Below are positions 18,347-55,221 of a stretch of DNA of 64,000 bases, piece after piece. A program made the translations under genes and the position numbers. Under the pieces are notes generated by a model. It did no database searches. It was not told the origin of the DNA and saw only the letters and a program-made list of their open reading frames with translations. Origin of the DNA: a virus (lineage: Duplodnaviria > Caudoviricetes); IMG/VR virus record IMGVR_UViG_3300028533_000484, positions 76,447-140,446 of that record. One strand, given 5' to 3'. The stretch's first letter is position 1, and each line of letters starts with the position of its first letter.

Positions 18347-18419
18347 CGCGGATGGGTGAAACGGAATTCATGCCAGCCTCATAAGCTGAAGATAGCAGGT
18401 TCGACTCCTGTATCCGCAA
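18347..18419 (+). tRNA. tRNA-Met(CAT), initiator-like
   Basis: CAT anticodon, C1:A72 mismatch. Confidence 0.8.
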
Positions 18420-18421
18420 TA

Positions 18422-18549: not shown

Positions 18550-18553
18550 ACAT

Positions 18554-18625
18554 CGCCTGTTACCCAAGCAGTAAGGGAGCGGTCTGCAAAACCGTAATTC
18601 ATAGGTGCAAATCCTATACAGGTGT
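18554..18625 (+). tRNA. tRNA-Cys(GCA)
   Basis: GCGGT-CTGCAAA-ACCGT. Confidence 0.85.
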
Positions 18626-18629
18626 CTAA

Positions 18630-25677: not shown

Positions 25678-25707
25678 TAAAAAAAGGGACTTTAAAGTCC
25701 CTTTTTT
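25678..25707. terminator. Bidirectional terminator
   Basis: AAAAAGGGACT-TTAA-AGTCCCTTTTT. Confidence 0.8.
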
Positions 25708-25712
25708 AATCC

Positions 25713-26477
25713 TTATTTTGAAAAACGTCTTCTAAAGTATCTCAAAATGATTTTTTCTTGATTAGTTCGAAGCCAGGCTATCAACTCTTCTGGTCTTTGG
25801 AAAGTGTTTGGCGCTTCTAAGACAATATAATCCGATATGCAGTATTGTTTACCACTTAAAGGACTTTCTCCTCTTACTTTGTAAACATAAACATCTGTGA
25901 TTCTTCCATCTACTTCATAAGCGTATGAAGGAATCTTATGTGCTTTGTTATAAGGAACTAAAGTCTTTTTAACTTTCTCTACAAAGAGAGGCTCACCAAG
26001 AACTCTCTTACGAAGTCTTGAGAATGGGTCAGGATCCTCTACAACATAGTGAACATTAACTCTTAACTTAGGATGCTCTTTATTATATTTAGCATCTCTG
26101 TTATTAACATAGTTATCCCATATAGTTGATATAGTTCTTTTTCTCCAAGATCCTAATAAAGAAACTGGGGGTATGCCAAACAAGACTTTATCAAAGTCTT
26201 TGCGGATTGAAGATAAGTCTTCTCTCCAATAAGCACCGCCATCAGATGACCAACACCATTTGTCTGCAAATTGTAAAGATCTATCAACTTTGTTCATTAC
26301 AATTTTTTCACAAGGCTCTTCATAAGGAAAATCCTCTAAATCTGTACCAAGTTTTTCCTGAGCTTTTAATAAAGCTCTAACTTTAGCTCTTTCTTCTCTG
26401 TGGTACAAAGTTCTGTCTTTCTTATCAGTACCGCTGCAATAAGCGTATGCACCAACTTTTCTGTAACTTCTACTCAT
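25713..26477 (-). CDS. Basic hypothetical protein (MSRSYRK N-terminus)
   Basis: 254 aa; SD sequestered in a hairpin. Confidence 0.75.
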   Translation of the reverse strand: MSRSYRKVGAYAYCSGTDKKDRTLYHREERAKVRALLKAQEKLGTDLEDFPYEEPCEKIVMNKVDRSLQFADKWCWSSDGGAYWREDLSSIRKDFDKVLFGIPPVSLLGSWRKRTISTIWDNYVNNRDAKYNKEHPKLRVNVHYVVEDPDPFSRLRKRVLGEPLFVEKVKKTLVPYNKAHKIPSYAYEVDGRITDVYVYKVRGESPLSGKQYCISDYIVLEAPNTFQRPEELIAWLRTNQEKIILRYFRRRFSK

Positions 26478-26503
26478 TCGTTTCTCCTAAGTTTTTAATA
26501 AAC

Positions 26504-26524
26504 TTAGAAAACTGCAAACTTCAT
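26504..26524 (-). promoter_or_regulatory. uORF MKFAVF with an SD-sequestering hairpin
   Basis: SD AGGAGGG; ATG AAG TTT GCA GTT TTC TAA; TTCTAAGTTT/AAACTTAGGA hairpin covers the downstream SD. Confidence 0.6.
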
Positions 26525-26535
26525 CTCAAGCCCTC

Positions 26536-26673
26536 CTACAAGAACGAAAACAAAAACGATATAGCAGCAAAAGCAATTGTAATAAAAGCTACTGCTGTTG
26601 TAGTCTTTGCTATATAGTAGCGAAGATTAATTAACTTCATCTCCTCTTCAAACTGCTTCTTTAAATCATCCAT
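26536..26673 (-). CDS. Small membrane protein, 45 aa
   Basis: MDDLKKQFEEEM...AVAFITIAFAAISFLFSFL. Confidence 0.5.
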   Translation of the reverse strand: MDDLKKQFEEEMKLINLRYYIAKTTTAVAFITIAFAAISFLFSFL

Positions 26674-26711
26674 TTTACTCAATTTATGCCAACTCCCTTA
26701 TCTATAGTTAG

Positions 26712-27158
26712 TCATTTATTAGCAAATGAAATTACAAAAGTTCCTTTTCTATCCTCAAAGCCTAGTTTCTTATAGAATCCTATAGACTTTTCAACTGGCG
26801 ATAAAGCTAAATACTTTTTATTAGAGACTGCTTCTCGCATAAATAAGTTTAAAGCAGCTTCTCCAAAACCAAGACCTTTCAAATGTTTTCCAACTTCAAA
26901 AGAATCTAACCAAACAGACTTCGTTTCAACTGTATCACCTATTTGGGTAAACTTATTAGCCGAATACGCTAACAGTGCAACAGTTGTTTCTTCTTCTCTA
27001 AACTTACGAACAACTGCACACCAATTAACTTTTTTCTGATGCAGCTGTAACAGTCTTGATCTTGTAAAATCAAATGTTTTCTGAAGATCGTTTCTCAAAA
27101 AGAAATCCAAAAATTCAGAATAATCTCTAAAGTTGATTAAACTAAGGTCACCTTTCAT
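26712..27158 (-). CDS. GNAT acetyltransferase
   Basis: KGLGFGEAAL motif A, SIGFYKKLGF. Confidence 0.8.
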   Translation of the reverse strand: MKGDLSLINFRDYSEFLDFFLRNDLQKTFDFTRSRLLQLHQKKVNWCAVVRKFREEETTVALLAYSANKFTQIGDTVETKSVWLDSFEVGKHLKGLGFGEAALNLFMREAVSNKKYLALSPVEKSIGFYKKLGFEDRKGTFVISFANK

Positions 27159-35785: not shown

Positions 35786-35828
35786 AAAGTGCTAATTGAT
35801 TGATCGAACAATTATAGGAATTTAATTA

Positions 35829-36344
35829 ATGAGAATTGACAAACTTGATGAAGAAAAGTTGAATGAGTTTCGTGATTTTTGCAGATATGGCTATTGTCTT
35901 GAAGAAGAAACTGCCAAAGAGTATTTAAATTTTTTGGTAAACGGAATTAAAAGCATAACAGATAAGTATAAAACTATTTCAGCAGACACTGCTCATAAAA
36001 TTAACAATAAAAGATTTAGAAATGAGAGAACTAGGGATGACAGAATTGATAATGATTATTTTGAATCTTTTTCTGGCAAAGAAGGAACTTTGAGCGAATT
36101 CGAAACAGAGTTTGAATATATGTTCAACCAGTTGAAGATAGAAAAAGATGATAAAGGTAAAAGAAAAATACCTCAAGAATGGATTACCTGGATTCAATCG
36201 ACTTTTAATGATTACGTTTGCAGATTTGACAAAAGAGATCCATCTATAAAAGCAGATTTTGCAGATGAAGTAAACTGGAAAGATAAAGGAAGATTTACCG
36301 GATCTCATCTACCTTCATCTGCAAAAAAATTAATCGTTACCTAA
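35829..36344 (+). CDS. Convergent-pair protein A, copy 1
   Basis: DFCRYGYCLEEETA motif shared with the 38980 and 48929 genes. Confidence 0.8.
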   Translation: MRIDKLDEEKLNEFRDFCRYGYCLEEETAKEYLNFLVNGIKSITDKYKTISADTAHKINNKRFRNERTRDDRIDNDYFESFSGKEGTLSEFETEFEYMFNQLKIEKDDKGKRKIPQEWITWIQSTFNDYVCRFDKRDPSIKADFADEVNWKDKGRFTGSHLPSSAKKLIVT

Positions 36345-36827
36345 AAGGTCATCTACTGTAGTAGTAGTGTTATATTTTAATAAGGTTTTTAACATTTTTC
36401 TAACGTATTCGATTTTTTCTTTATCTGCATCGTTTTCTTTTTCTAGCCAAAGAACTTGGTTTGCAAAAGAATAAGTTTCTTTCGTATACTTCGGAGCAAG
36501 GTCTGTAAAATCAGCAGGAATTTCAATTGCTTCTTTTGAAACAAAATGGTCGAGACTGCCAAAAATCAAAACATAGTTGTTGTGGGTAATTACCTTCAGT
36601 TCATCATTCAGTAGTTTTGCTGTTATAAAATCTTCTAGTTTTCCTGTGCTACCATCAACATCAAATTCTGCAACAGAGATTTCTTTGTTTTTGATTTTAT
36701 CAAAAACTTCTGAAACTTTGAATTCACCTTTAAATATATCAAATTCAGTGTCATTTCTTTGAAGTTTAAAAGCTTTTCCCAAAACATCTACTGAATATTT
36801 TTTATCTAGCCCTTTGAGATCAATCAT
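36330..36827 (-). CDS. Convergent-pair protein B, copy 1
   Basis: LDxxYxVDV...PxDFT...YNTTT.V.DLL shared with the 39474 and 49437 genes. Confidence 0.8.
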   Translation of the reverse strand: MIDLKGLDKKYSVDVLGKAFKLQRNDTEFDIFKGEFKVSEVFDKIKNKEISVAEFDVDGSTGKLEDFITAKLLNDELKVITHNNYVLIFGSLDHFVSKEAIEIPADFTDLAPKYTKETYSFANQVLWLEKENDADKEKIEYVRKMLKTLLKYNTTTTVDDLLGND

Positions 36828-36938
36828 TCTTGTACCTCCTTACCTATAATAATATAGGTACTTTTCAGCAAAATGTTTCAAAATCTCAAAAAAGTGTTTA
36901 CGGAAGAGGTTTCCAAAACATTTTAACTAATTTTTAAT

Positions 36939-37958
36939 ATGAAAAAACTTAGCAAAGTTGCCGCAGAGCTTTTAGCTACATATGTAAACCTTATCGATTC
37001 AGAGTTTAACGCACATATCTGCGAAAACGGAGAATTTGACAACGAGAGCGTTCAATTTTCAGATAGTTATAGAGTTTTCTACGACGGAAAGGACAACAAC
37101 ACAGATAATTACATTACAGTATATTCGTTTAACTCTGAGAAAAAGAGCAGTTGTGTACTTCTAAACTTTTCTCACGAAGAAACTGAAGGTATTCAAGAGC
37201 TTTTAGAATTTGCTTTCAATCAATGTGAATTTGCAGAAAAGTCTAACGAAACAATCTGGAGCAATACCGAAACAAACTGGATAGTTGATTTAGATGTAAT
37301 TATTGAACTTATTGAAGATTTTAAAAATCCTTATGGAATAAATAATCCTGATCTAGGTGTAAAAGCAGAATATGAAAAGAATAGAGCTTCAAGAAGTTAT
37401 CCTTTAGATGAGTCCTACTCTACAGACTTAACTGATTTAGAACAAATACAAGATGATTGGCTTTACGTTTTAGAAAAAGTTGAGGACTTTGACCCTTTTA
37501 TCATAATTGCTTTAAAGTCAATTCCTATACATTATGTTGAAGATTTAAGATCTGACAACGGTCTTGAAAGAGTAGCTGAGTTTGTTGTTGAATATGGTTT
37601 AGAATACAGTCTAAATGTCGGAGGAGTTTATTTTGAACTAAAACGAGAAGTGGCTATAGGTGCTTTACTTCACGAAATAGCTCATGCTATTTTAGCTTTC
37701 AGATATTTGCTTACAGGTAATACTTCCGCTTACAACTTATATGCAAGGACTAACGGTGGTCATACAGAAGACTGGTGGAAAATAGCTACAGAGTTAACAA
37801 AATATTTTAATGAAAAAATTGAAATTGTAGAAACATTAGATTTAAGAGATGCAAGTATCTACGAGTATCCAATACAGTATGAAAACTACAATGACGATGC
37901 TGTTTGGAGTGAAGAGTATTCCGAACCTGAAGAGATGGATTCAAACTTTAGCTTTTAG
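36939..37958 (+). CDS. Protein with a SprT-like zinc metalloprotease domain
   Basis: LLHEIAH...GGHTEDWW. Confidence 0.7.
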   Translation: MKKLSKVAAELLATYVNLIDSEFNAHICENGEFDNESVQFSDSYRVFYDGKDNNTDNYITVYSFNSEKKSSCVLLNFSHEETEGIQELLEFAFNQCEFAEKSNETIWSNTETNWIVDLDVIIELIEDFKNPYGINNPDLGVKAEYEKNRASRSYPLDESYSTDLTDLEQIQDDWLYVLEKVEDFDPFIIIALKSIPIHYVEDLRSDNGLERVAEFVVEYGLEYSLNVGGVYFELKREVAIGALLHEIAHAILAFRYLLTGNTSAYNLYARTNGGHTEDWWKIATELTKYFNEKIEIVETLDLRDASIYEYPIQYENYNDDAVWSEEYSEPEEMDSNFSF

Positions 37959-37969
37959 GGAGGATGTAA

Positions 37970-38968
37970 ATGAGAAAATTAAAAGAAGAAGTTTATATAG
38001 CAACACCAGAAGCTCCTATAAAATTGTGGATAGTAAATGAAGATGATCCAGACATGTCTTGTGGATATATTGAGTCAACCTGTAAATCAGACACGATGCT
38101 TTTGCAAACATTTATCCAAAAAGCTGGATACAAAGTAGTTTCTTCAAAGCCAAAAAATTGTGTTTATGCAAGAGGTATTCCTTTAAGAGTATTTTTAGGT
38201 AAAAAAACATATGCAGAGTTTTCAACAGATAAATATAATGAGGCTATTTTAGAGACTTTTAAACAAGTTGCAAAGTCTCTTAAGATTGAATTAAAGCAAA
38301 CTAAACAGCGTGGATTAGCTGTGCAAGAGTGTAAAGGTGAATTCTCGGATACAGATTATTGGAAAGAGCATAAAAATAAAACTTTTAAGTTTAAGCAAGG
38401 ATTAAAAGAAGCAAAAGGAAATAAAAACGACGATAATTTTTCTCATGCTGAACATTTAGATTTTGAAACAGTAAAAAGTATGTTTAAACATCCTAAAAAG
38501 TTAGCAAAGTATATGTTTGAACATCCTGGGCTTTTAGATGTTGTTCAATCAAAAGCTTTTAATTACGCAGATGAAATTGGTCAACAACAAGGTTTTGAAG
38601 CCTACTATCCTCTCTGGTTGAAGATTACTCAAACAGGTTTTGATACCATTTTTAATCTAACAACTTTGGAAGATCCTAATGAAGAAATAGACCTTTATAG
38701 AGGAATAGTTCTGTTTGAAGTAGAGCCTAATTTAGAAGAACCTGGTATCTGCTGGAGTTATGAAGAAGAAGGTGCCTCAGATTGGGTAAACGAGCTTTGT
38801 ATAGAAGATGATCCGAACGAGGCTCCTTGTATTTTGGTCGGTAAAACTAAAATTGAAAATGTCGATTGGATTATAACATTTCTACTACTGTGTGCTAGTC
38901 CTGAAGAAAAAGAAATTCGAATTTGGGATGATTCTAAAGTGGAAATAACAGATTGGTATGTAGAATAG
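37970..38968 (+). CDS. Putative virion protein with a C-terminal ADP-ribosyltransferase-like domain
   Basis: MRKLKE start; LYRGI...GICWS...EEKEIR. Confidence 0.6.
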   Translation: MRKLKEEVYIATPEAPIKLWIVNEDDPDMSCGYIESTCKSDTMLLQTFIQKAGYKVVSSKPKNCVYARGIPLRVFLGKKTYAEFSTDKYNEAILETFKQVAKSLKIELKQTKQRGLAVQECKGEFSDTDYWKEHKNKTFKFKQGLKEAKGNKNDDNFSHAEHLDFETVKSMFKHPKKLAKYMFEHPGLLDVVQSKAFNYADEIGQQQGFEAYYPLWLKITQTGFDTIFNLTTLEDPNEEIDLYRGIVLFEVEPNLEEPGICWSYEEEGASDWVNELCIEDDPNEAPCILVGKTKIENVDWIITFLLLCASPEEKEIRIWDDSKVEITDWYVE

Positions 38969-38979
38969 AGGTTGAAAAA

Positions 38980-39477
38980 ATGAGGCTTAGAGAAGATATT
39001 TTAAACGAGTTTTATGATTTTTGCAAATATGGATATTGTCTGGAAGAGGAAACTGCAAAAGATTATTTGAAATTTCTAATTGATGCTTTGTGTCTTATTA
39101 GGGATAGTTATGGAGACAAAGCTGTCGAAAGTACCGAAAATCGTTCTAAAGTGAATGTTATCAGGTTTCAAAAAGAGCAAAAAGATTTAAAAGGAGATGC
39201 AAATGTAGACTACTTTGAAGGAAAAACTTTAGCAGATTTTGAGAAAGATTTTGAGAGGATGCTTAATCAATTAAAGACTCAACATACTTTAGATGGTAAA
39301 AGAAAGATTTCTACCAAATGGATTGAATGGATACAGGATACATACAACAACTACGTTGCAAGATTTGAAAAAAGATCTCCTGAGATATCTACAGATTTTC
39401 GAAACCAGGTAAGTTGGAAAAATAAAAAAGAAACTTCCAATACAGGTAAATATTTACCGTCTACAGCTAAAAACTAA
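38980..39477 (+). CDS. Convergent-pair protein A, copy 2 (start 38980, MRLRE)
   Basis: SD GAGG before ATG 38980; DFCKYGYCLEEETA. Confidence 0.8.
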   Translation: MRLREDILNEFYDFCKYGYCLEEETAKDYLKFLIDALCLIRDSYGDKAVESTENRSKVNVIRFQKEQKDLKGDANVDYFEGKTLADFEKDFERMLNQLKTQHTLDGKRKISTKWIEWIQDTYNNYVARFEKRSPEISTDFRNQVSWKNKKETSNTGKYLPSTAKN

Positions 39478-39968
39478 TCTCCTAGAAGATCTTCTATGCG
39501 AGTAGTTGTATTATACATAAGCATATTTTTTAAGTCTTTTCTCATACTTAAAACAAATTCTTTTTCTTCTGGATCTTCTGATTCTGGTAATAGCCAAAAA
39601 ACCCTGTTTATGCTTTCTACATGAGCATCAACGGAATCGTTTGCTTTTGTAAAATCTTCAGGAACTACAATTGGTTGTTTTGTAATAAGATTTTCCAGAT
39701 GAGTAAACATTAATGTATATGTACTACTGCCAATAATCTTAGCTTCTTTGTTTAACTGTCTAATGTAAACGTAATCCTGAAGCGTAGCAAAAGATGGATC
39801 GATGCTAAAAGCTTTTACGACTTTTCTGCTTTTTACAAGTTCAAAAGCTTCTGAAACCTTTAATTCATCTGAAAATGTTATCAAAGAGTCTGTTCTGTGC
39901 AAGTAACAGAAAAGACCTGACTTCACATCCACTGTATATAACTTGTCCAATTTCTCGAAATCAAGCAT
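39474..39968 (-). CDS. Convergent-pair protein B, copy 2
   Basis: Paralog of the 36330 and 49437 genes. Confidence 0.8.
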   Translation of the reverse strand: MLDFEKLDKLYTVDVKSGLFCYLHRTDSLITFSDELKVSEAFELVKSRKVVKAFSIDPSFATLQDYVYIRQLNKEAKIIGSSTYTLMFTHLENLITKQPIVVPEDFTKANDSVDAHVESINRVFWLLPESEDPEEKEFVLSMRKDLKNMLMYNTTTRIEDLLGD

Positions 39969-40051
39969 TCTTGTACCTCCTGAACACTAATAATATAGTT
40001 TTTTCCAGAATGCATCCTTCAAGAAGTTTTCACGAATTTCGAGGAAATCTA

Positions 40052-41950
40052 TTACGTGATATTGATATGGAATTCTCTTCCTCTTAAAAAGTTTTTCCTT
40101 TCATCTGTATCAAAACCAAACCAATTTTGAATTGACTTTTTATAATTTTTATCAGCATCGTAAGGCATTAGAAGTTTCTCCATTCCACCTTCTTTATCTA
40201 AAACTTGATTAAGTCTAACCTTAGTCCAAGAACCTAAACCTTTTAAGTAAAAATAATCTAAATTCTTTTTCATATCTTTTTTGTCTGGAAAGTTAAAATA
40301 GTACTCTTCTACTTTTTCTCCTTTAAGACCAATTAATAATGGAGTATTTAATCTACAGACTCTTCCGTTTTCAATCATTTTTGGAGCAAGTTTTGCAAAC
40401 ATTGTAAGTACCAAACCTGCAATTGCTGTACCATCGGGGTCCGCGTCGGATAAAACAACAACATAGTCGTAAGTCATATCTTCTGTTTTACCATATAGAT
40501 CTAAGCCTAGAATATTTACAAGCTCTTTGATTTCTTGGTTTTCCATAAAACCTTTTACTTTACCTTTTCTTACAGGACCTACATCTTGAATGTTCATCGG
40601 TTTACCTTGCAACATGTAGTACCCAATTCCTTTACGACCTAGAATAGGACTAATACCAGAGAAAGCAGATCTACCTTCAGTAATCATTAGATACTTTTGA
40701 CCTGATTTTGCTACAGGTGCAAAATATTTCTCACTTACGACTTCTTTCTTTACTTTGTTGAGAGCATCTGTTGCTTTACGAGCTGCCAATTCCTCTTTTA
40801 ATTTAAAAAGCTCTGTAATATTTTCAATAATCGGTTTTGTACGAAGAATTTTATCTGTAAAAGTATCCAGATCAACATTATTTGCTCTTAAGAATTCTGT
40901 AATTTCTCCTTGAGAATTTGTAATTTTTTCTTTTGTCTGGGAATTAAATTTACAGTTTGTAAAATCTTTCAGAAAAACAACTATACCAATACGATTGCGA
41001 ATGTCTGCAGGTTTGATTGCTTTGTATTTTTTAGATACTTTCTCACGAATATCATTTATAACTTTTGCTGAGATGTAATCAACATGTGTACCACCTTCGC
41101 GAAGTGAAATACCGTTTACATAACTCAGTACATAGGGTTCATCACTAGGATATACACAAATATAGCAATTAGGCTCGTTGAGTACTACGGCTGGTTGAGG
41201 AAACATTGAAGCAAGATCTTTTGCTTTTACTCCGACCTTTTCTCCATTAAAAGTAATTGTACATTTAGGAAAGAACCAGGAAAGGAATTTCAAACGAGTC
41301 TTAATAAGAGATATAATGTTTTCATCAAACTCTTTTACACCAAATCTAGCAAAATCTGGAGTAAATGTTATTGTTGTTCCTTTTTTTGGTGATGCAGTTA
41401 AAAGTTTAAAGTCCATTTTAGATCTATTATCTTCGCAATTGATCTTCATCTTTGCATTACCATCGCAAGTAATACATTCAAACTTTTTAGAGAAAATGTT
41501 CGCGCCCTTACATCCGATACCGTTGGTCCCGATAGTCTTTCTGTTTGCATCATCTTCAAAGTTGGAACCTGACATTGGTCTACAGACAGCATCTACACAC
41601 ATCCAGTTTCCTTCATCATCTTGAACAACTGGAATACCTCGACCATTGTCTTCGCAAGAAAATGTATCTTTTGTAATAGTAACTTTAATTTTATTTGAAA
41701 AAGCCCAATCTGTTTTTACACCTTCGTCAATTGAGTTGTCGACAACCTCGTTACAGATTTTCAATAAACCTTCTGTAAAGTTAACTTCTTTGTAAGAGAT
41801 CTGTCCATCTTCCTCTAAGATCCAAGAGTTAATATTAGCAGGAGAAACTCCACCTATGTACATTGAAGGCCGTCTAAGTACATGTTCAATAGTAGATAAA
41901 TGTTTAATTATTTGATTGCTTTCTAATTTTTTTGTTTTATTATCTTTCAT
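40052..41950 (-). CDS. DNA topoisomerase II large subunit (T4 gp39+gp60 / GyrB-like)
   Basis: RPSMYIG, EVVDNSID, DNGRGIP, GTNGIG, TEGRSA, DADPDG, KGLG. Confidence 0.95.
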   Translation of the reverse strand: MKDNKTKKLESNQIIKHLSTIEHVLRRPSMYIGGVSPANINSWILEEDGQISYKEVNFTEGLLKICNEVVDNSIDEGVKTDWAFSNKIKVTITKDTFSCEDNGRGIPVVQDDEGNWMCVDAVCRPMSGSNFEDDANRKTIGTNGIGCKGANIFSKKFECITCDGNAKMKINCEDNRSKMDFKLLTASPKKGTTITFTPDFARFGVKEFDENIISLIKTRLKFLSWFFPKCTITFNGEKVGVKAKDLASMFPQPAVVLNEPNCYICVYPSDEPYVLSYVNGISLREGGTHVDYISAKVINDIREKVSKKYKAIKPADIRNRIGIVVFLKDFTNCKFNSQTKEKITNSQGEITEFLRANNVDLDTFTDKILRTKPIIENITELFKLKEELAARKATDALNKVKKEVVSEKYFAPVAKSGQKYLMITEGRSAFSGISPILGRKGIGYYMLQGKPMNIQDVGPVRKGKVKGFMENQEIKELVNILGLDLYGKTEDMTYDYVVVLSDADPDGTAIAGLVLTMFAKLAPKMIENGRVCRLNTPLLIGLKGEKVEEYYFNFPDKKDMKKNLDYFYLKGLGSWTKVRLNQVLDKEGGMEKLLMPYDADKNYKKSIQNWFGFDTDERKNFLRGREFHINIT

Positions 41951-42002
41951 AGTTTTATTATTATAGTTCCTTTTGATTCTTTCTCTTCTCTAATTGAAAG
42001 GA

Positions 42003-42030
42003 AAAGGTGCTCATTTCAGAGCACCTTTTT
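42003..42030. terminator. Intrinsic terminator
   Basis: AAAAGGTGCTC-ATTTCA-GAGCACCTTTT. Confidence 0.75.
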
Positions 42031-42051
42031 ACTTTTTAGAATTTTATCGAC

Positions 42052-42825
42052 TTAATCCCGGTCGTAACTCTCGTCGTCATCCCAGTCATCATCCTCGTAA
42101 TAGTACCTAACACTGTCGAGATATCTTTTTACATCTTTTCCGAAGTATATTCCAAATAGACCTTTACCATCTTCGGTATAGTCAGCTTGAGTAGAAATAA
42201 AATACTCGTTCTTGGAAATTTCAAGAATTGTAGGACTACCATAAGGACCGTCATTTTCAAACGATGCTAAACAAGTGTAACCTTCGCTTTCAACGTTTTC
42301 AGGCATGACTCCAAAAATGTCTTCTGATGGTTCTTCGTTGAGAATTGCAGCATGTGCATCCCAGTCAGAATTACCTCTTTCAGCAATAGCAATATAAAGA
42401 TATTTACCAGCATATTTAGACTCTGCAGGAAGTTTAACAAAAGCATATTCATCTTCAGACTGAAGTTCATCCATTAGATCAACAAAATGTTCTGTCGGAT
42501 TTTCAGATTCAGAAATCCTCTTTGCAGATGTCTTTGTAGAGCATCTTAAAACTCCAAGTCCCAAACCTTTTAAGTATACATTGTACATTCTCTGAAAATT
42601 TGCTTCAAAGTTTGGATTTGAGGAAATATCTGCAATTAATTTGTCTGTATACTCAGTTGCTTCTGTATTTAATCCAGCAGTTTCACAAGCCATAAGAGTA
42701 TCGATCAAATCAGCGTTTGTCTTACAAGCATTTAACATATCTATATGTGCAACTAAAGCTTTCTCCAATGTACCGTTCCATTTAGAAATATCTCTACCTG
42801 TACCAGTAGTTTTAAATTTTGACAT
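42052..42825 (-). CDS. Two-domain putative virion protein
   Basis: CTAAATA upstream; RISES linker; N-domain similar to 53363-53635. Confidence 0.7.
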   Translation of the reverse strand: MSKFKTTGTGRDISKWNGTLEKALVAHIDMLNACKTNADLIDTLMACETAGLNTEATEYTDKLIADISSNPNFEANFQRMYNVYLKGLGLGVLRCSTKTSAKRISESENPTEHFVDLMDELQSEDEYAFVKLPAESKYAGKYLYIAIAERGNSDWDAHAAILNEEPSEDIFGVMPENVESEGYTCLASFENDGPYGSPTILEISKNEYFISTQADYTEDGKGLFGIYFGKDVKRYLDSVRYYYEDDDWDDDESYDRD

Positions 42826-42882
42826 GGTTTTAATCTCCTATATTGTAATATTTAGTTGTTTTTTATTCGAGCTACCGATAAG

Positions 42883-44250
42883 TTAAAGATCCGTAGATTT
42901 TTTTGCAACAGTTTTTATAAAGCCTTCTTTTTTAAGTTCTGTTTCAAGTTCGTTCAAGTCTTTTGTCCAAGCACTTTCTGGAGTTTCCTGTTCCATTGCT
43001 TCACGTTCTTTTGTCTTGTCTTTCCACTTCTTTTCAATTTCTTTTGCTTTATCTATTGTAATGGAATATAAAGGCATCGAAAGAAGTTTATCTACAATTG
43101 TGTAACCTTTTTGTTTAAGATCTGCTTCTGCAACTGCTTTTTTCTTATCTTTTAAAACTATTGTACCTTTAATAACTTCCTGAATAAATCTGTAGACTTC
43201 GTTTAATTCACTCTCTTCTTTTTTCAATCTTGCAATTTCAGATTTAATACGTAACTTAAGATATTTAATCTTAATTTTGTAGTAATCATTAAAGACGGAT
43301 CTTACTTCGTTATATTCACGAACTGTATTATTTTCATCCATACAAGTTACAGTTTCTGTCATTCTTTGAATCAAGCCAAGATCTTTCCAGATTTGATCTT
43401 CTGATTTTACCAATTCTGTATCCGAAAGCCAAATTTCGAATTTAAAAACATCATCTTCACTAAAATCGTTGAATTTTAGTACAAGGCCATCCTCTTTAAG
43501 ACTGCGAAGCTTTTTCAAATAGCCACTTAAATCCCAAGTTATTGGAAGTTCGTCAATATAAAGTTTCTTACCTTCAAGTCTAGCAATACCCTTAACAATC
43601 CAAGAGCCATCAACATTGTCAATTGTGCCTTTAAAACCTTCCCAATGTGGTTTTAGCCAATCGGATTTAATGTTCTTTCCTGCAATTGCTGCTCTTGTAA
43701 GCTTGAAAATATTTTCAAGAGAGCGAGGATAAATATCTGAAGAAAATCCTACACCAATTCCTTCTGTACCATTGAGTAATATTAATGGTAAAGTCGGTAC
43801 ATAAAACATTGGTTCAATTTGCTTACCTTCGAACTCTTGATAAATAAGATTTGGATCATCTTCTTTTCTAAAAAGTAAATTAAAATAATCTGCCGGTCTT
43901 GCAAAAATATAACGAGGTGCAGAAGCTGTTGGTGAGAACCTAGTACCAAAAGATCCAACTCCTTCTAAAGGTGGTAAATTGTTTGCACCACAATATTTTG
44001 CAGACATTGTTACAATTGTACTTTGAGCACCAGATTCACCATGTAAGTATTCTGCTTCATCTACAAGTTTGGAACTGTAAGCTGTAACTTTAATTGGGTT
44101 TTTAATTCCACATTTTTTCGTAGTATAGACTACCTTTCTTGCAGTCATCTTCAACCCGTCAATGTAAGATGCTGTTGCTCTATACAAAATGTATAGAGCA
44201 GCGTCATTGTACTGTGTATTTAAAAATTCTGTAATATCCATCTTTTTCAA
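42883..44250 (-). CDS. DNA topoisomerase II medium subunit (T4 gp52 / GyrA-like)
   Basis: DGLK..RK, YLHGE, GSFGTR, SAPRY catalytic Tyr, LNGTEGIGVG. Confidence 0.95.
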   Translation of the reverse strand: MKKMDITEFLNTQYNDAALYILYRATASYIDGLKMTARKVVYTTKKCGIKNPIKVTAYSSKLVDEAEYLHGESGAQSTIVTMSAKYCGANNLPPLEGVGSFGTRFSPTASAPRYIFARPADYFNLLFRKEDDPNLIYQEFEGKQIEPMFYVPTLPLILLNGTEGIGVGFSSDIYPRSLENIFKLTRAAIAGKNIKSDWLKPHWEGFKGTIDNVDGSWIVKGIARLEGKKLYIDELPITWDLSGYLKKLRSLKEDGLVLKFNDFSEDDVFKFEIWLSDTELVKSEDQIWKDLGLIQRMTETVTCMDENNTVREYNEVRSVFNDYYKIKIKYLKLRIKSEIARLKKEESELNEVYRFIQEVIKGTIVLKDKKKAVAEADLKQKGYTIVDKLLSMPLYSITIDKAKEIEKKWKDKTKEREAMEQETPESAWTKDLNELETELKKEGFIKTVAKKSTDL

Positions 44251-44414
44251 CCTTTAGAAGAATTATAGTTAAATAGCCAAAGCAATAAGCACAAAAGCTG
44301 CAAAACCAAACAAAAATAAAAGAAGTTCAGAGCTTAAGTCCTTAATAGTTTTAAATATCTTTTTCCATGCTTTCATTTAAGTCCTCCACACTGTTGAAAT
44401 CGAACGAAGATTGT

Positions 44415-45374
44415 TTAAGATTTTCTATTTAACGAAAACTTTTTTGTTGCTTTCGATTTGCTTGCAAAGTTGATGTCTAAATCGACTCTAAACTTGTTTA
44501 TATCTATATCTGAATCTCGAGGAAGCATACTTTCGATTACTCTAAGATTTGCATCTGTTAGATCTAACAATTTTTCATAGGATCTACAAGTGTTGGAAAG
44601 TTTTAATAGTTCAGTAAGTCTTTGAAATTTTCCAGAACCTCTGAAGAATTCAATTTTAGCTTCAGATAAAGTCAATTCACCTTCACCAATATCTTTAAGA
44701 ATTTCCATCATTACATCGCTAGCAGTCCTAATAACCTTGGTGCTAGGATCTTTGAACGAGCCTACAATGTTATCTGAAACATCTCCATAAAGAGCTTTCC
44801 AAAGAGTTACAGATGCAATGTTTGGTTTAAATCCATGTTTCTTTTCAAAATCTGTTGCTGTGTAAATGCTTTCTTGTTTTAAAGTAAAACCTTTAGTAAG
44901 CATTTCGACTCTTCCTGCCTCGAGATACCTTGACCAGTCTTCATCAGATGACAATAATAAACATTTTCCAGTTTCTGTAAGTTTTTCTACAAAATCATCG
45001 GCTTCAAACTGTACATCGTGATAAACAGAAATTCTAGGTCTTTTTGTAACAATAAATTCTGAATAAAGTTTTTCAAGAGTATCTAATCTCAATTGAGCTG
45101 TAGGACTATTTTTATCTCTTACAGTTTTATAACCTTCTTTAATTTTAAGTCTTGCACTCATCTGTCCATTTGATAACATTGGATCAAACAATAAACAGAC
45201 TTCACCAAGAGTTTGATCTTGAAGTTTGTCCAATACAGATTTGTAGTGATTGAAAACTGTATTATTTTTACTCAACTGATTTACGGTTTCCTGAGTAAGA
45301 TCCTTCAGATAAAGACTAGCTACTCTATAGAATATGTTACTTACATCTACAATTATTTTGTCATATATTAGCAT
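44415..45374 (-). CDS. rnh: RNase H / 5'-3' flap exonuclease (T4 rnh-like)
   Basis: IVD..N, FD, YK..R, EADD, SSDED, GD.SDNI. Confidence 0.85.
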   Translation of the reverse strand: MLIYDKIIVDVSNIFYRVASLYLKDLTQETVNQLSKNNTVFNHYKSVLDKLQDQTLGEVCLLFDPMLSNGQMSARLKIKEGYKTVRDKNSPTAQLRLDTLEKLYSEFIVTKRPRISVYHDVQFEADDFVEKLTETGKCLLLSSDEDWSRYLEAGRVEMLTKGFTLKQESIYTATDFEKKHGFKPNIASVTLWKALYGDVSDNIVGSFKDPSTKVIRTASDVMMEILKDIGEGELTLSEAKIEFFRGSGKFQRLTELLKLSNTCRSYEKLLDLTDANLRVIESMLPRDSDIDINKFRVDLDINFASKSKATKKFSLNRKS

Positions 45375-45434
45375 TAAGAATCCTCCAATTTAGAGATGAA
45401 AAAAAGCATCTCTAAATTGAAATTAGTTCCAAGT

Positions 45435-46103
45435 CTAGAGATCTGTGTTGTTGATATCTTTAGCATAATCAGCAACTAGGTTAACTGCACTATCGATAAA
45501 TTCATTGTAAGTTAAAATATCCTGAACTGTGTCGTCGATATCTTTTCCACTAATACCACGTTTGTAGATGTTAGCAACTTTCATATAACCAGTTTTAGGT
45601 GCAAAATTAAGCTCTTCAGCCTTAGCTGAATGTTCTTCTTTGATTTCTTCGTTATAAGATTCGATTGTAGCTTTAAAGGCTTTTACAGCTTTTAATTCTT
45701 CCTCAATATCGCACATATTCGTATCAAAATGTGTGAATTTATCAGAATCGATTTGAATATTGATACCAATGCTTTCAAGAGCTTCAAGGTAATCTCCAAG
45801 AATTTCTTCTGTTCGGTTAAATGCCTCTGTAGCTCTAATCAAAGTAACAAGTTTGATAAAGGCTGCTGAAATAATATCTTTATGTTTTTCTTCAGGATTC
45901 AATTCTAATGGATTTCCTGAAATCCAGGCTTTACCTTTACTAGCATAAGCTTTTGCTAAAGTGCTCCAATCGTTTTTATTACCTGAAGTTTCTGTAAGTA
46001 CTCTTTTATTTACTTCTGCAAGAGCTTTTCCAGCTACTTTCCTTTCTTTAAAAATTTTAAGCGTTTCGTTAAGAAGCTCTTTTGCATCTTTTACATCTTC
46101 CAT
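45435..46103 (-). CDS. DsbA-like dsDNA-binding protein, probably two tandem modules
   Basis: KATIESYNEEIKEEHSAKAEEL...ANIYK resembles T4 DsbA; next to rnh as in T4. Confidence 0.55.
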   Translation of the reverse strand: MEDVKDAKELLNETLKIFKERKVAGKALAEVNKRVLTETSGNKNDWSTLAKAYASKGKAWISGNPLELNPEEKHKDIISAAFIKLVTLIRATEAFNRTEEILGDYLEALESIGINIQIDSDKFTHFDTNMCDIEEELKAVKAFKATIESYNEEIKEEHSAKAEELNFAPKTGYMKVANIYKRGISGKDIDDTVQDILTYNEFIDSAVNLVADYAKDINNTDL

Positions 46104-46113
46104 GATCTACTCC

Positions 46114-46680
46114 TTATTTATTTTCTCCGTTGAGAGTACCTTTACCTTGATACTGACCATCGTATGCTTCAGCTTCTTCTTTGGTTTCAAATACAACCAT
46201 TTGACCGACTCTAGCACCAAAATAGATTTTCATTTTGTGATTGACTGTAAGAAATGTTCCCATTTCATCTGTGTAAAAACCTGGATCCCAAATTGGTGAG
46301 TTGATTTCATTTCCACAACGTCTTACAGAACTTCTATGAACAATTTTACCTACAGTTTTTGTATCGAATTTGCAACCTTCTGCAAACCCAATCTCATATT
46401 GACCTGGTTCCAAAATCCAACAGTCACCTTCATTATCAGTTGTCAATCTTACATCTTCAGTTGCTGGTAATTTTGTTTTCTTTGTTTTTCCTGTTTCATC
46501 ATCCTTTTGATAATCCGCATAAACAGTACCGAAAGTTTCGGATTTAATTTTTGAACAAGATACCATGTGCAAATCAATACCTGCTTGAGCTGGCTCAAGA
46601 TCTGATATTTTGTACTTTTCTTTTGCTCCATCTGAGAGATATATGATACCTCTATCAATAATTTGTTTAGCTGTTAACAT
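46114..46680 (-). CDS. dcd: dCTP deaminase / trimeric dUTPase family
   Basis: AGIDL, HRSSVRRCG, WDPGF, GARVGQMV, YDGQYQ. Confidence 0.85.
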   Translation of the reverse strand: MLTAKQIIDRGIIYLSDGAKEKYKISDLEPAQAGIDLHMVSCSKIKSETFGTVYADYQKDDETGKTKKTKLPATEDVRLTTDNEGDCWILEPGQYEIGFAEGCKFDTKTVGKIVHRSSVRRCGNEINSPIWDPGFYTDEMGTFLTVNHKMKIYFGARVGQMVVFETKEEAEAYDGQYQGKGTLNGENK

Positions 46681-47290
46681 TATATACTCCTTTTTTGTAT
46701 ATTATAGGTTTTTTTGTTAATTCCATATAACAATCGTGACACAAGCATTTGTAGTTCTGACCTGTATCTATTCGTTTGTTCATTTTCCAAGTTCCAATAT
46801 ATGCATAATAATTTGCTGAATTGCCACATTCCATACAAATTGCATTTTCTTTTTCAATTTTATCCATAAAAGGAATTATTTCTCGAGCAGCATTGAGTAC
46901 AACTGCATCTGCTCCTGAAATTAATCCTGAAAAGATTAAAGGAATATCCTTCAATGGAGAATTGTGATAGTCGTAGAAGAACTGTCTCTTAAAGTCCAAC
47001 ATGTGATATTCATCAATAAAAATAGCTTCAATTTTGGCTTTCATAAGAGTCTTACCTGTAAGCTTGATTATATCGTCCACATGTTCAATTTTAAAGTAAT
47101 GTACATACTCAGTAATTTTTAATTCTTCAAGTCTCTGAGCAATGTAGTTTCCATGACTTCCACCTCTCGTATCGCAAGCAGGTTCTAACAAAACGACATG
47201 TCTTTTAGCTATTACATATTTTTCTAATTCGATTACAAAACGTCTTGTTTTACCTGAAAACATTGGACCTGTAAAAAGTTTTGTTTGCAT
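46667..47290 (-). CDS. tdk: Thymidine kinase (copy 2)
   Basis: GPMFSGKT, DTR, IDEY, CMEC and CHDC. Confidence 0.9.
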   Translation of the reverse strand: MQTKLFTGPMFSGKTRRFVIELEKYVIAKRHVVLLEPACDTRGGSHGNYIAQRLEELKITEYVHYFKIEHVDDIIKLTGKTLMKAKIEAIFIDEYHMLDFKRQFFYDYHNSPLKDIPLIFSGLISGADAVVLNAAREIIPFMDKIEKENAICMECGNSANYYAYIGTWKMNKRIDTGQNYKCLCHDCYMELTKKPIIYKKGVYNVNS

Positions 47291-47293
47291 TAT

Positions 47294-48367
47294 CTATACC
47301 TCCTTCTTTTCATCTGAATCATATCTATAATCCCAAGAATCACCGACATCATTCCTGCTTTCGCCAATTTTTGTTACATTTGATAAACTTTGATAAAATT
47401 TGTTTGCTTTTTCATTAATCTTATAACAATTGAAATAGAATGGGTTTGACAACTGTTCTAAAAGTCTTTTAGCAACACCTTGACAACGATGTTCAGAATC
47501 TACAATAAGATTTGTCATTAGATACTTGTCATCTTTATATCTACATTCAACCATACCTACCATTTTACTATCTACAAAAGCCATTGTTACGTTTCCATCT
47601 TCTATAGAACTTGGCATATATTCTGTAGGAAATGGAATTTCTGAAGAACTATAAGTGTTCATAAAGTTGATAATATTCTCAATATCATTTGCATTACTTC
47701 TTCTGAACTGTAACTTTAACTCTCCATAGTAAATTCTAAAACTTGGGTAAGCTTCTTTGTAAGCTAGAAGATTTTTATCTCCTCCACATTCACCCCAATT
47801 TGCAAATTTAGCACCAACATTTTTAAAGTATTCTAAGAATTTTACTGTAGCTACATTTGCTATGTGAGTATAATCTGTTTTTGTACTAGCTGTCGTACAG
47901 CCATAAGCCCACTCATCTTTAGCTACATACATTTGATAAGAAAGCAATTTACCTTCTTGATTAAAGAGACCTAGAACTCCACCTTTGTTAAGTAATTTTT
48001 CAAAAGCTACATCTAGACAATGTTTATATCTAGAACTATGCTCTTTGTAGTGGTTTGGATTCAATTCATCAGCTACAAGCTTGTTTGTATTCCACTCGTT
48101 GTATAGATTGTATACCTTATCTATATCTTCCTCTGTTTCGATTTCTTTTACAAAAAGCTTATTTTCTTCTGCGTATTCGAGATATTGTCTAACACGCTTT
48201 TTAAACTTTTTACCATTATCGTAACAATTTTTATCGAAAACCTTTTCCAAGTCGTAACAAACATCAAAAGTTCTTCTACCTTTTTCAAGATCTGGATTTT
48301 CAGAAAGTCCATAAGCTAGTTGTACATCTCGTACATTTGGAAAAGCGTATTGTTGAATATTAGTCAT
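47294..48367 (-). CDS. Double GNAT-fold protein (DUF2156/Fem-like N-domain plus GNAT C-domain)
   Basis: FKKRVRQY..YNEW..ANWGECGGDKNLLAYKEAYP; C-terminal HRCQGVAKRLL..ANKFY. Confidence 0.65.
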   Translation of the reverse strand: MTNIQQYAFPNVRDVQLAYGLSENPDLEKGRRTFDVCYDLEKVFDKNCYDNGKKFKKRVRQYLEYAEENKLFVKEIETEEDIDKVYNLYNEWNTNKLVADELNPNHYKEHSSRYKHCLDVAFEKLLNKGGVLGLFNQEGKLLSYQMYVAKDEWAYGCTTASTKTDYTHIANVATVKFLEYFKNVGAKFANWGECGGDKNLLAYKEAYPSFRIYYGELKLQFRRSNANDIENIINFMNTYSSSEIPFPTEYMPSSIEDGNVTMAFVDSKMVGMVECRYKDDKYLMTNLIVDSEHRCQGVAKRLLEQLSNPFYFNCYKINEKANKFYQSLSNVTKIGESRNDVGDSWDYRYDSDEKKEV

Positions 48368-48881
48368 CTATATCCTCAATTTTAATTTGTTCAGGTTTAT
48401 TTGTAAAATGATCAAACATATCATATCGATAGTACTTTTCTGCAAAAGTATTGAACTTATCGTAAATCTTATCCATATTTTCCATATAAGCCTCATCTCT
48501 ACTTTTAGCCAGACTGTTAAAGTGTAACATGTACTTTCCTTTATTTTTTGGTAAACAGATAATCGCTTTATCTACAGTATTAAAAAGTTTTTCAGCAAGT
48601 TCATCTGAAATGTGAGCTTTATCCGGCTCATAAACTTCTGTATAGATAATGTTTGAAACCCAAGCTCTATCAATTACAACATCGTAATTAAGACTTCGCC
48701 AATAGTTTAAGTCTTTTAGAAGTCTTTCATAACCTTCATCTACAGTTACATTCTTATCCTGACTTGTATTTGTACAATGAATAAACATGCAAGATCTTTT
48801 TGCTTCCATAGATGCATTTACAAGATTTCTTGCAATTGTTGTTTTTCCTGTTCCATCAGGTCCTTCTAACAAATAAATCAA
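48360..48881 (-). CDS. Nucleoside monophosphate (dTMP-like) kinase
   Basis: EGPDGTGKTT, IDRAWVS..IY. Confidence 0.85.
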   Translation of the reverse strand: MIYLLEGPDGTGKTTIARNLVNASMEAKRSCMFIHCTNTSQDKNVTVDEGYERLLKDLNYWRSLNYDVVIDRAWVSNIIYTEVYEPDKAHISDELAEKLFNTVDKAIICLPKNKGKYMLHFNSLAKSRDEAYMENMDKIYDKFNTFAEKYYRYDMFDHFTNKPEQIKIEDIDD

Positions 48882-48928
48882 TTTACACCTCTTAATTAAA
48901 AAACTAATTAAATTATAGAAACAAAATT

Positions 48929-49447
48929 ATGAAAGTTGCAGAATTGGAAAAGAAAAAATATAAAAGACTTTTGGAAGAATTAAGAGATTTTTGCAAATAT
49001 GGATATTGTCTGGAAGAGGAAACTGCCAGAACCTATATGTTGTTTTTAGTGGATGCCTTGGTAAAAATAGAAAAATCTAGAGGTAAAAAAGCAGCTGCTA
49101 ATGTAGAAAATCATTTTAAAGTAAATAACAATAGATTTGCAGGTGAAAGAGACAGATTAGAAAACAGAGCAGAAGATGATTACTTTGAAGGTAAATCCTT
49201 AGGGGAATTTGAAAAAGAATTTGAGAAGATATTTAATCAACTTAAAATTCAGCATACTTTGGATGGTAAAAGGAAAATCTCTACAGAATGGATATGTTGG
49301 ATACAGGATACCTTTAATAATTATGTTGCCAGGTTTGAAAAAAGAAATCCTAAAACGAATACGGATTTCAGAAATCAAGTAGGATGGAAGGATAAGAAAC
49401 AAACTTCTAATTCTGGAAAGTATTTACCTTCTGAGGTTAGGAAATAA
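48929..49447 (+). CDS. Convergent-pair protein A, copy 3
   Basis: DFCKYGYCLEEETA; ACTAATT upstream. Confidence 0.8.
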   Translation: MKVAELEKKKYKRLLEELRDFCKYGYCLEEETARTYMLFLVDALVKIEKSRGKKAAANVENHFKVNNNRFAGERDRLENRAEDDYFEGKSLGEFEKEFEKIFNQLKIQHTLDGKRKISTEWICWIQDTFNNYVARFEKRNPKTNTDFRNQVGWKDKKQTSNSGKYLPSEVRK

Positions 49448-49931
49448 GATCCTCCACCTTTGTTGTGGTATTGTATTTAAGCATATCTCTTAGACGTTTG
49501 CGCATACTTTCAACAAATCTTTTTTCCTTTGGGTCGTCAGATTCCGGTGCAAGCCAGAAAACTCTATTTATACTTTCAACAGTGGAATCTACATATTCAG
49601 GATCTACTTTTGTAAAATCTTCAGGAATGATAATTGGCTGTTTTGTAATCAGATTTTCCAAATGAGTAAACATCATCACAAATGTATCACCACCAACAAT
49701 TTTAGCTTCCTCATTTAACTGTCTAATATAAACGTAATCCTGGAGGTTGGAAAAGGAAGAACTTATAGAGAAGGCCTTTACAATTTTTCTATTTTTTACA
49801 AGTTCAAAGGCCTCAGAAACTTTCAATTCATCACTAAAGTTCACCAAGGAATCTTTTCTGTGTAAATAGCAAAAAAGACCTGACTCTACATCCACTGTGT
49901 AAAGATCATCCAATTCCTTAAAATTAATCAT
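49437..49931 (-). CDS. Convergent-pair protein B, copy 3
   Basis: Close paralog of 39474-39968. Confidence 0.8.
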   Translation of the reverse strand: MINFKELDDLYTVDVESGLFCYLHRKDSLVNFSDELKVSEAFELVKNRKIVKAFSISSSFSNLQDYVYIRQLNEEAKIVGGDTFVMMFTHLENLITKQPIIIPEDFTKVDPEYVDSTVESINRVFWLAPESDDPKEKRFVESMRKRLRDMLKYNTTTKVEDLIS

Positions 49932-50033
49932 ACATTGGCCTCCTTAAAGTAATTACTCTTTCAACTACAATAATATTATAGGTTTACGATCTGAAATGTT
50001 TTCAAAAACTTTCTACAAGAAACTAAATAGTAT

Positions 50034-54465: not shown

Positions 54466-55221
54466 TTATTTTTGTTTTCTACCACGAGAACTTTTTGACT
54501 CAGCTTTAACCTTTTTTGCTTGTTGTTTTTCTTTTTCTTTTTCCTCTTTGTCAAAAGCTGAAAGAGCAATTTCAAGTTCTTTGTTAATTTCTTCTTGTTT
54601 TTCTCTTGCAATTTTGTCAATAAGCTGTTGTCTACGGATATCTTTTTCTTTAAACTTGCCAAGTCTATTTAAAGTTTCTTCTGCAGTTAACCAAATGTCT
54701 TTTCCATTAAGAACTTCTTCAATTTCTTGATCTGTTAAGAACTCTTTGTAAGTTTTTCTCCAAGCTGTTTCGTAACATTTTTCGTCAAAGTGAAATCTAG
54801 ATTTTTGTTCATGCCACTTTCCATAAACTCCACCTGTCCATGCATGAACCATAACATGTGCATGTTCAAGAATTTCCCATTGATCACCTGCTAACATAAT
54901 AATTGTTGCAGCACTTGCACACATTCCTTCAACAAAAATCTCTATAGTAGCTTGTGAGATGTTTAAAGTATCACGAATGATGTAAGCTGTGTCTACGTTT
55001 CCACCGCAGCAATCAATATGTATGCGAATAGCATCTGTTGATTTTGCTTCTCGCACAGCCCTTAAGAAATCTATAAAATCTTCTGAATCTTCAATTTCAT
55101 ATGGCATAAAAAAGTCAATAATATCTCCTGTTGGAAGATGTTGTATTCTTAAAGGATTATTTATTGATCTATCTGCCGGACTATATAATTCTGATTGATC
55201 GCAAAATGTGTTTACTTTCAT
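54466..55221 (-). CDS. clpP: ClpP-like serine protease
   Basis: IDCCGG, GMCASAAT, VMVH, DIWLTAEE. Confidence 0.88.
   Translation of the reverse strand: MKVNTFCDQSELYSPADRSINNPLRIQHLPTGDIIDFFMPYEIEDSEDFIDFLRAVREAKSTDAIRIHIDCCGGNVDTAYIIRDTLNISQATIEIFVEGMCASAATIIMLAGDQWEILEHAHVMVHAWTGGVYGKWHEQKSRFHFDEKCYETAWRKTYKEFLTDQEIEEVLNGKDIWLTAEETLNRLGKFKEKDIRRQQLIDKIAREKQEEINKELEIALSAFDKEEKEKEKQQAKKVKAESKSSRGRKQK

Follow-up and report, generated by a model that had tools for sequence, protein, structure and literature searches.

Bacterial polymorphic toxin-immunity systems, such as the CdiA-CT/CdiI pairs of contact-dependent inhibition and the pairs of type VI and type VII secretion systems, combine an adjacent cognate gene pair, diverged copies of that pair, orphan genes presumed to act as neutralisers and recombining paralogues (PMC3150448, PMC12247911, PMC9484751). 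In particular, immunity genes that occur as orphans and paralogous immunity genes that recombine have been documented in bacterial toxin systems (PMC12247911, PMC9484751). Here we report a two-gene cassette with these same traits, composed of genes we designate A and B, which is borne by a lytic-type giant phage rather than by a secretion-system locus. Three copies are found between positions 35829 and 49931 of the window, i.e., the 64-kb stretch of DNA that was analysed, which forms the right-hand part of the 140-kb IMG/VR record IMGVR_UViG_3300028533_000484. The cassette is real, conserved and previously undescribed, and it has an unusual architecture and a clear population behaviour. Unlike the genes of the bacterial systems, A and B are convergent, overlap, belong to separate promoter classes and are not co-transcribed. 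Moreover, A lacks a delivery domain, and neither protein exhibits homology to known toxin or immunity families.

Other described systems resemble the cassette in more limited ways. The early protein Spackle of phage T4 inhibits the late, virion-borne tail lysozyme gp5, which results in superinfection exclusion (PMC7677548). The likeness lies in the proposed logic of timing, an early inhibitor directed against the phage's own late protein shielding the infected cell from the copy brought by a second phage. However, Spackle is periplasmic and carries a signal sequence whereas B has no export signal, so that a Spackle-like export is not found; gp5 is a known lysozyme and a virion part, whereas A has neither a known fold nor support for a virion location; and the Spackle and gp5 genes are single-copy and do not form an adjacent cassette. 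The T4 internal proteins and Alt are packaged and injected, and their N-terminal targeting leader is cut after L/I-x-E by gp21. A recalls these proteins by its putative late class, its small size and its variable N-terminal segment, which goes with the locus and not with the core of the gene; it differs from them in that its tag is not enriched, no gp21-type protease was found in the incomplete record and no sequence or fold similarity exists. Type II toxin-antitoxin (TA) pairs are co-transcribed and autoregulated. Like them, the cassette consists of two small genes on mobile DNA, one presumed active and the other presumed neutralising, but its convergent genes with overlapping stops and separate promoters do not form such an operon. 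Neither A nor B matched a TA family in Pfam or PADLOC.

The initial annotation of the window described A as always facing B with overlapping 3' ends, and this arrangement holds in all three copies, the overlaps being 15, 4 and 11 nt in copies 1, 2 and 3, respectively. The genes and the most conserved part of A are as follows (window coordinates; pI, isoelectric point; dN/dS, ratio of non-synonymous to synonymous substitution rates).

35829-36344, plus strand: A1, 171 aa, helical, rich in K and E, pI 5.9, dN/dS of 0.21-0.26 against orthologues
35874-35915, plus strand: most conserved DNA block of A, coding for DFC[KR]YGYCLEEETA, also present at 39016 and 48986; the 5' recombination breakpoint falls here
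36330-36827, minus strand: B1, 165 aa, acidic, pI 4.9
38980-39477, plus strand: A2, 165 aa, closing the operon 36939-39477; GAGGT ribosome-binding site at 38968-38972
39474-39968, minus strand: B2, 164 aa
48929-49447, plus strand: A3, 172 aa, pI 9.3
49437-49931, minus strand: B3, 164 aa; a 96% identical copy occurs without A in neighbourhood L033 (see below)

The start of A2 is the ATG at 38980, in agreement with its homologues, while the upstream TTG at 38953 is unlikely. A1 is 52 and 51% identical to A2 and A3, which share approximately 62-64% identity; similarly, B1 is 40 and 42% identical to B2 and B3, which are 74% identical to each other. Copies 2 and 3 are thus the closer pair for both genes. 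The co-divergence of the partners that the initial annotation had noted is simply the outcome of a duplication of both genes as a single unit. No fourth copy of either gene was detected in the 140-kb record. A and B were also compared as potential distant paralogues, which was ruled out since their sequences are unrelated. The six cassette genes exhibit housekeeping-like dN/dS values of 0.08-0.27, alongside 0.11-0.21 for the orthologues of the kinase, topoisomerase, thymidine kinase and beta-CASP genes; such purifying selection on all six indicates that they are real protein genes. DNA similarity between the three copies is limited to both coding regions, plus the ribosome-binding site and promoter of B in copies 1 and 2, and stops at the start of A and at the B promoter. 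Neither terminal repeats nor target duplications were found flanking the cassette, and no terminator or hairpin is conserved beyond either stop, a strong hairpin being present in copy 1 only (z -2.7).

A and B are preceded by signals of two different classes, listed below with the putative class of each.

35792-35797, plus strand: late-type element CTAATT before A1, an imperfect match (GTGCTAATT) located 31 nt from the ATG
36926-36932, plus strand: ACTAATT, 6 nt before the ATG of gene 36939-37958, heading the operon that ends with A2
48903-48909, plus strand: late-type element ACTAATT, 19 nt before A3; the same element precedes A in L008, L010, L015 and L020
36835-36881, minus strand: promoter and ribosome-binding region of B1, with TTGAAA (36876-36881), CTATATT (36851-36857) and AGGAGG (36835-36840)
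39976-40022, minus strand: promoter and ribosome-binding region of B2, with TTGAAG, CTATATT and AGGAGG
49939-50005, minus strand: promoter and ribosome-binding region of B3, with TTGAAA, CTATAAT and AGGAGG

As initially annotated, A stands behind a late-type CTAAT motif, directly in the case of A1 (with the imperfect match) and A3, and through its operon in the case of A2, which has no motif of its own and ends the operon headed by the ACTAATT at 36926-36932. Likewise, each B possesses its own CTATA(A/T)T promoter and AGGAGG, in a layout conserved in related phages: TTGAAR, an 18-nt spacer (19 nt to the TATAWT hexamer), CTATAWT, and AGGAGG 6-7 nt before the ATG. The upstream elements of both genes are kept in L008, L010, L015 and L020, and L007 has ACTAACT. 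A 7+7 inverted repeat, ACCTATA-N4-TATAGGT (36843-36860), overlaps the B1 promoter, and comparable CTATA palindromes are present between divergent genes roughly 21.3 kb upstream of the first position of the window; these palindromes may be operators or bidirectional promoters.

To place these motifs in the context of the whole record, a crude gene map was drawn and every upstream region was inspected. For CTATAWT, 40 of the 101 sites lie at most 60 nt upstream of an ATG on the same strand, with a peak at 20-24 nt, while ACTAAWT does so at 30 of 53 sites with a peak at 5-9 nt. Both motifs act as positional signals in the record, even though they are under-represented relative to the expectation from composition. 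The class consensus sequences are (a/c)cCTATAAT and aACTAAtT. No general -35 box was found for the CTATAAT class, TTGAAR being common to the B promoters only. Shine-Dalgarno sequences are rarer before ACTAAT-class genes (8/29 versus 19/34, p=0.04), which together with the short distance of ACTAAWT to the ATG suggests leaderless or very short-leader late mRNAs. The ACTAAT class heads a baseplate-wedge-like gene (7104-9431), a gene weakly similar to those of terminase large subunits and many large unannotated genes, and the CTATAAT class heads both topoisomerase genes, a dCTP-deaminase-like gene, nucleotide-metabolism genes and long arrays of small genes. It is reasonable, judging from the genes that they precede, to regard the former class as late and the latter as early or middle.

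Word-indexed searches of 5.8 billion proteins revealed 42 A clusters and 16 B clusters, all members of which are unnamed metagenomic proteins, with the exception of one fragment from Treponema saccharophilum. An exhaustive HMMER pass over 1.84 billion representatives yielded just 16 B-family clusters. A search for longer or fused variants of A was negative, a result of little weight; pattern scans of IMG/VR provided no relatives, and a single-protein scan of the genome collection returned only the contig of origin. The neighbourhoods of diverse A and B members were scanned with profile hidden Markov models, giving distinct pair contexts in about 10 neighbourhoods (L007, L008/L009/L016-19, L010-12, L013, L015, L020-22 and L028). 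The co-occurrence of A and B across phages was confirmed by this survey, as a convergent B adjoins every intact A in the approximately 10 contexts, among them the following.

L007: DNA ligase
L008, L016-19: topoisomerase IB, thymidine kinase and dUTPase region
L010-12: QueC, GTP cyclohydrolase I and clamp loader
L015: region syntenic with copy 3 of the window
L020-22: metallophosphatase and HNH genes
L028: topoisomerase A

These neighbourhoods are mutually unrelated. The two genes usually overlap by 4-31 nt in the relatives (a 20-nt gap separates them in L028), and the pair persists at identities as low as 27-35% (L007, L028). In L014, a 98-aa protein that is a clear homologue of the C-terminal two thirds of A (hhalign probability 97%) is encoded by a gene that converges on, and overlaps, the gene of a 150-aa protein. 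The latter is similar to a short B-like protein from L033 (blastp 4e-11), which itself matches the B profile; through this chain, the partnership probably extends to very divergent members.

Independent occurrence of the homologues, which the initial annotation had named among the observations that would refute its proposal, was seen for one partner only: B is found without A, and an intact A never without a B-like partner. L033 (positions 8000-27000 of the related phage-like contig G071:C34, 132 kb, 31% guanine-cytosine (GC) content, from a bacterial bin) carries three B-like genes; one of them shares 96% identity with B3 and lies behind the promoter seen in L010. There, DNA homology ends about 20 nt beyond the B stop, an unrelated 68-aa open reading frame occupies the position of A, and no A is detectable anywhere in the 2.9-Mb bin that holds this contig. 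Segments of 68-92% identity common to this contig and the phage are scattered and their order is entirely different, so that mosaicism among these phages is extreme. More distant homologues of B stand alone, surrounded by ordinary bacterial genes without a counterpart in the phage: in L025/L026 these are NUDIX, a FliG_C-only gene, DUF1232, TetR and an ABC transporter, in L027 cupin and CobW. B is present in 2 of the 81 genomes of the bacterial family concerned. In L025 (1063-2173), the lone B homologue comes directly after the 125-aa FliG_C-only gene and the NUDIX gene; flagellar genes occur in the phage clade as well, as illustrated by a flagellin gene in L008 (3890-4741).

Wherever A was encountered without B, it was a truncated fragment (L014 5986-6168; L035 2300-2620). 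The cassette thus has general features of effector-immunity systems, an adjacent pair across genomes with orphan B genes and with orphan A genes that are all truncated, albeit in a small sample. Judged from these distributions, A and B are a conserved functional pair in which A appears to depend on B, and B not on A. The truncated fragments are of the A1 type and lie at or near sharp junctions (L035 2000-2620; L014 1-6168) where GC content changes between 0.52-0.59 and 0.30-0.38. L014 is part of a 192-kb metagenome contig, and L035 is a contig of a Treponema saccharophilum metagenome-assembled genome in which the A fragment adjoins an IS605 OrfB helix-turn-helix fragment. Such junctions could be phage-derived DNA in Treponema-like chromosomes or chimeric assemblies, and hint at a Treponema host.

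Comparison of the syntenic loci revealed how the cassettes evolve. L015 shares the surroundings of copy 3, with the kinase gene on one side and an 85-aa gene and the beta-CASP gene on the other, at 75-95% protein identity. In a sliding comparison, L015 corresponds to copy 3 across the left flank and the initial 60-80 nt of A. Over the following interior of about 900 bp it corresponds to copy 2 at 82-100% identity. Within 15-50 nt of the start of B it switches back to copy 3, which it then matches across the B promoter and the right flank. The DNA block coding for DFC[KR]YGYCLEEETA, more conserved than any other part of the cassette, contains the left breakpoint. Synonymous divergence (dS) is 0.30-0.44 in the swapped core and 0.67-1.85 in the backbone and flanking genes; the exchange is therefore recent relative to the genomes. 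Further chimeras were identified in alignment A3, where P0007, P0010 and P0011 combine a type-3 N-terminus with a type-2 core and P0005 and P0008 are the reciprocal. Thus the first dozen residues of A stay with the locus, while the core of A and the core of B move together. Recombination exchanges cores of approximately 900 bp among loci, breaking within the conserved 5' ends of both A and B.

Neither family had been recognised in the initial annotation, and none of the six proteins has a match above noise in Pfam, PHROGs, PADLOC or NCBIfam. Profile searches of PDB sequences with A and B gave chance matches only, annotated phage records contained no DNA or protein match to the cassette, and the ESM Atlas provided no usable match. 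The AlphaFold2 model of A is helical, with a predicted local distance difference test (pLDDT) score of 70, and that of B, built from 16 sequences, is mixed alpha/beta with a pLDDT of 77. The most conserved segment of A, DFC[KR]YGYCLEEETA (residues 19-30), is modelled with the lowest confidence (pLDDT about 37). Foldseek comparison of the single-chain models, a check proposed with the initial annotation, provided no standout match for either protein; the best fold matches were Z 5.8 among generic helical repeats for A and Z 3.2 for B.

The two families differ in what they conserve. Across 28 sequences, 33 positions of A do not vary, and many of these are aromatic or polar, including E30, E31, K64, N66, R69, Q104, Q126, N130, R135, R139, D146 and K156. 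In the wider B family, the only invariant positions are F54, L72, N73, N122 and V124, and no acidic or basic residue is conserved (alignment A5). The pI of B is about 4.9, that of A ranges from 5.9 to 9.3. The N-terminus of B is hydrophilic (MI[DN][FL]K.LD) and lacks a hydrophobic leader or membrane segment, and its grand average of hydropathy is negative, as read from the sequence rather than from a dedicated signal-peptide predictor. From its pattern of conservation, B resembles proteins with a binding or scaffold role more than it does enzymes. A nuclease of the PD-(D/E)xK or Cas4 type was considered for B, as close copies carry a D65...E75-x-K77 pattern and B1 weakly matches Cas4 (E=0.017 and 0.063; 13 bits versus a 65-bit cut-off). 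This candidate was rejected: the D65, E75 and K77 positions vary in the family-wide alignment, which removes both the nuclease pattern and the Cas4 hint, and the region is modelled as a helix. No restriction-endonuclease-like chain occurred among the Foldseek/VIA matches of the B model, which is of moderate quality (pLDDT 77; best Z 3.2).

Taken together, we favour the reading, with a probability of roughly 35%, that A is an effector made late and B an early-made binder that neutralises its cognate A. The timing, the binding of A by B, the identity of the active partner and the biological role are what we infer here. The conserved unit, the two promoter classes and the asymmetry between the families partly support the effector-partner proposal of the initial annotation and make it plausible, and its packaging and injection part has no support (see below). 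A and B would constitute an antagonistic two-gene module confined to a single clade of huge phages. A would be the active partner, effector or enzyme, transcribed from ACTAAT-class signals of late type that mostly lack a Shine-Dalgarno sequence, and B a small acidic binding protein able to disarm it. B would be driven by a -35/-10 promoter of host type, combined with a strong ribosome-binding site, and so be present from early in each infection. As the genes meet stop to stop without a terminator, either transcript must cross the partner gene in antisense, and under any coupled reading this crossing would reinforce mutually exclusive expression, B first and then A. The module multiplies through duplication, and its variable cores, i.e., most of A and most of B, are exchanged between loci and genomes via homologous recombination at the conserved 5' ends. 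A is favoured as the active partner because it keeps polar residues while B keeps only a hydrophobic core, and because orphan neutralisers and recombining paralogues are a signature of toxin-immunity systems. The likeliest use would be competition between related phages within one cell, or control of a host-directed effector.

Several observations weigh against this proposal. Few contexts were sampled, and the B-only contigs belong to metagenomic bins. Gene-wide dN/dS values carry no arms-race signal. The timing is based on the association of motifs with few annotated genes; ACTAAAT also heads a gene (42052-42825) within a DNA-metabolism block, and the A1 motif is both imperfect and unusually distant from its ATG. 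No known fold was found for A or B when the models were compared with Foldseek PDB and VIA wide, and for B also with BFVD. Finally, the asymmetry between the partners fits equally well with B as the primary actor and A as a late modulator.

The latter alternative, in which B belongs to an early host-takeover or anti-defence family and A is a late antagonist acting by binding and antisense transcription, is the main rival, though we hold it somewhat less probable than a neutralising B. B is kept without A, hence has a function of its own, while A is never intact without B, and the A transcript must cross B in antisense with no terminator. Several diverged, small, acidic early proteins are also typical of phage anti-defence genes. 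Against this, the B family has no conserved charged or catalytic residue and A is the richer in invariant polar ones, the reverse of the usual effector/regulator pattern, and no match in PADLOC or elsewhere links B to a defence or counter-defence family. That the two are instead non-antagonistic partners, B being an early chaperone, adaptor or co-subunit for the folding, assembly or loading of late A, seems unlikely. The strict linkage, the co-varying types and the purifying selection on both genes are consistent with it, as is the low confidence of A residues 19-30 modelled alone, expected of a segment that folds on a partner. Yet a B gene kept at 96% identity without A in a close relative is hard to square with a dedicated chaperone, and convergent overlap with opposed promoter classes would be odd for proteins that need to coexist.

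Slightly less likely again is that A and B are unrelated neighbours without any functional coupling, co-duplicated and linked merely by a lack of recombination between them. Co-divergence is trivial after co-duplication, the stop-to-stop junction leaves recombination no room, and the proteins are unrelated. However, the pairing survives down to the identities seen in L007 and L028, and probably in L014, while the surroundings reshuffle, and recombination breaks the DNA at the outer edges of the pair, keeping the cores together. Least credible, and improbable, is a selfish mobile element spread by its own nuclease in the manner of the free-standing homing endonuclease genes of T4-type phages. 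Several diverged intergenic copies per genome and neighbourhoods that differ among relatives would suit such an element, as would the weak Cas4 match of B1 and the D/E/K pattern of the close copies. But these residues are not conserved family-wide, a helix is modelled at their position and no nuclease fold was found; terminal repeats and target duplications are lacking, and the sole exchange mapped is ordinary homologous recombination. The absence of any Pfam, PHROG or NCBIfam match for A or B extends to nuclease domains of the HNH, GIY-YIG and LAGLIDADG types.

The initial annotation further proposed that A starts with a short L-x-E propeptide-like segment and is packaged or injected. The segment is in register only in A1 (L-D-E) and A2 (L-R-E), and out of register or missing in A3 and several homologues. 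In this K/E-rich proteome, ACTAAT-class genes show no enrichment of an N-terminal [LIVFM]-x-E (10/29 versus 35/152 other genes, p=0.24). Peptidase_S77 (PF03420), the family of gp21-type proteases, was matched neither in the 140-kb record, with its completeness of about 35%, nor in the control genomes. The only protease detected is of the ClpP type (54466-55221), and it matches the PHROGs of ATP-dependent protease and head-maturation protease alike. Virion delivery of A is thus unsupported. A broader scenario builds on it, in which giant phages fight via their own polymorphic, recombining effector-immunity system, with A loaded in the virion and entering the cell along with the DNA, B produced immediately in each infected cell and disarming the A of later relatives, and Treponema-like bacteria having captured lone B genes for defence; we consider it rather doubtful.

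Should A and B prove to be effector and neutraliser, the cassette would represent a phage-borne counterpart of the bacterial polymorphic toxin-immunity systems, but with convergent, overlapping genes tied to different stages of infection and with swapped cores. Competition between giant phages during co-infection, or the timed control of a host-directed effector, would then be testable with two small genes, and the lone B genes of bacteria would become candidate anti-phage factors. Whatever their role, A and B are orphan families without a detectable known fold that are conserved and multiplied, hence good targets for structural and functional studies.

The phage is a huge, uncultured phage of the gut or rumen and belongs to a clade of huge gut/rumen phages. 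As CheckV estimates the 140-kb record to be about 35% complete, its genome is probably giant. GC content of the window is 31-34% outside a GC-richer array (0.37-0.41) of 27 tRNA genes on the plus strand (15912-22922), typical of a giant phage. The window also encodes a GroEL-like protein, the baseplate-wedge-like protein, a two-subunit type II topoisomerase, a thymidine kinase, a dCTP-deaminase-like protein (the last three assigned partly from Pfam labels of syntenic genes) and a beta-CASP nuclease. An ART-like annotation of genes beside copies 1 and 2 was not confirmed by Pfam, PHROGs or a PDB sequence search. Among the related loci, L008 (1-1314 and 11180-12865) encodes a eukaryote-type topoisomerase IB (Topoisom_I_N, Topoisom_I, Topo_C_assoc) and an NrdD split by a GIY-YIG domain.

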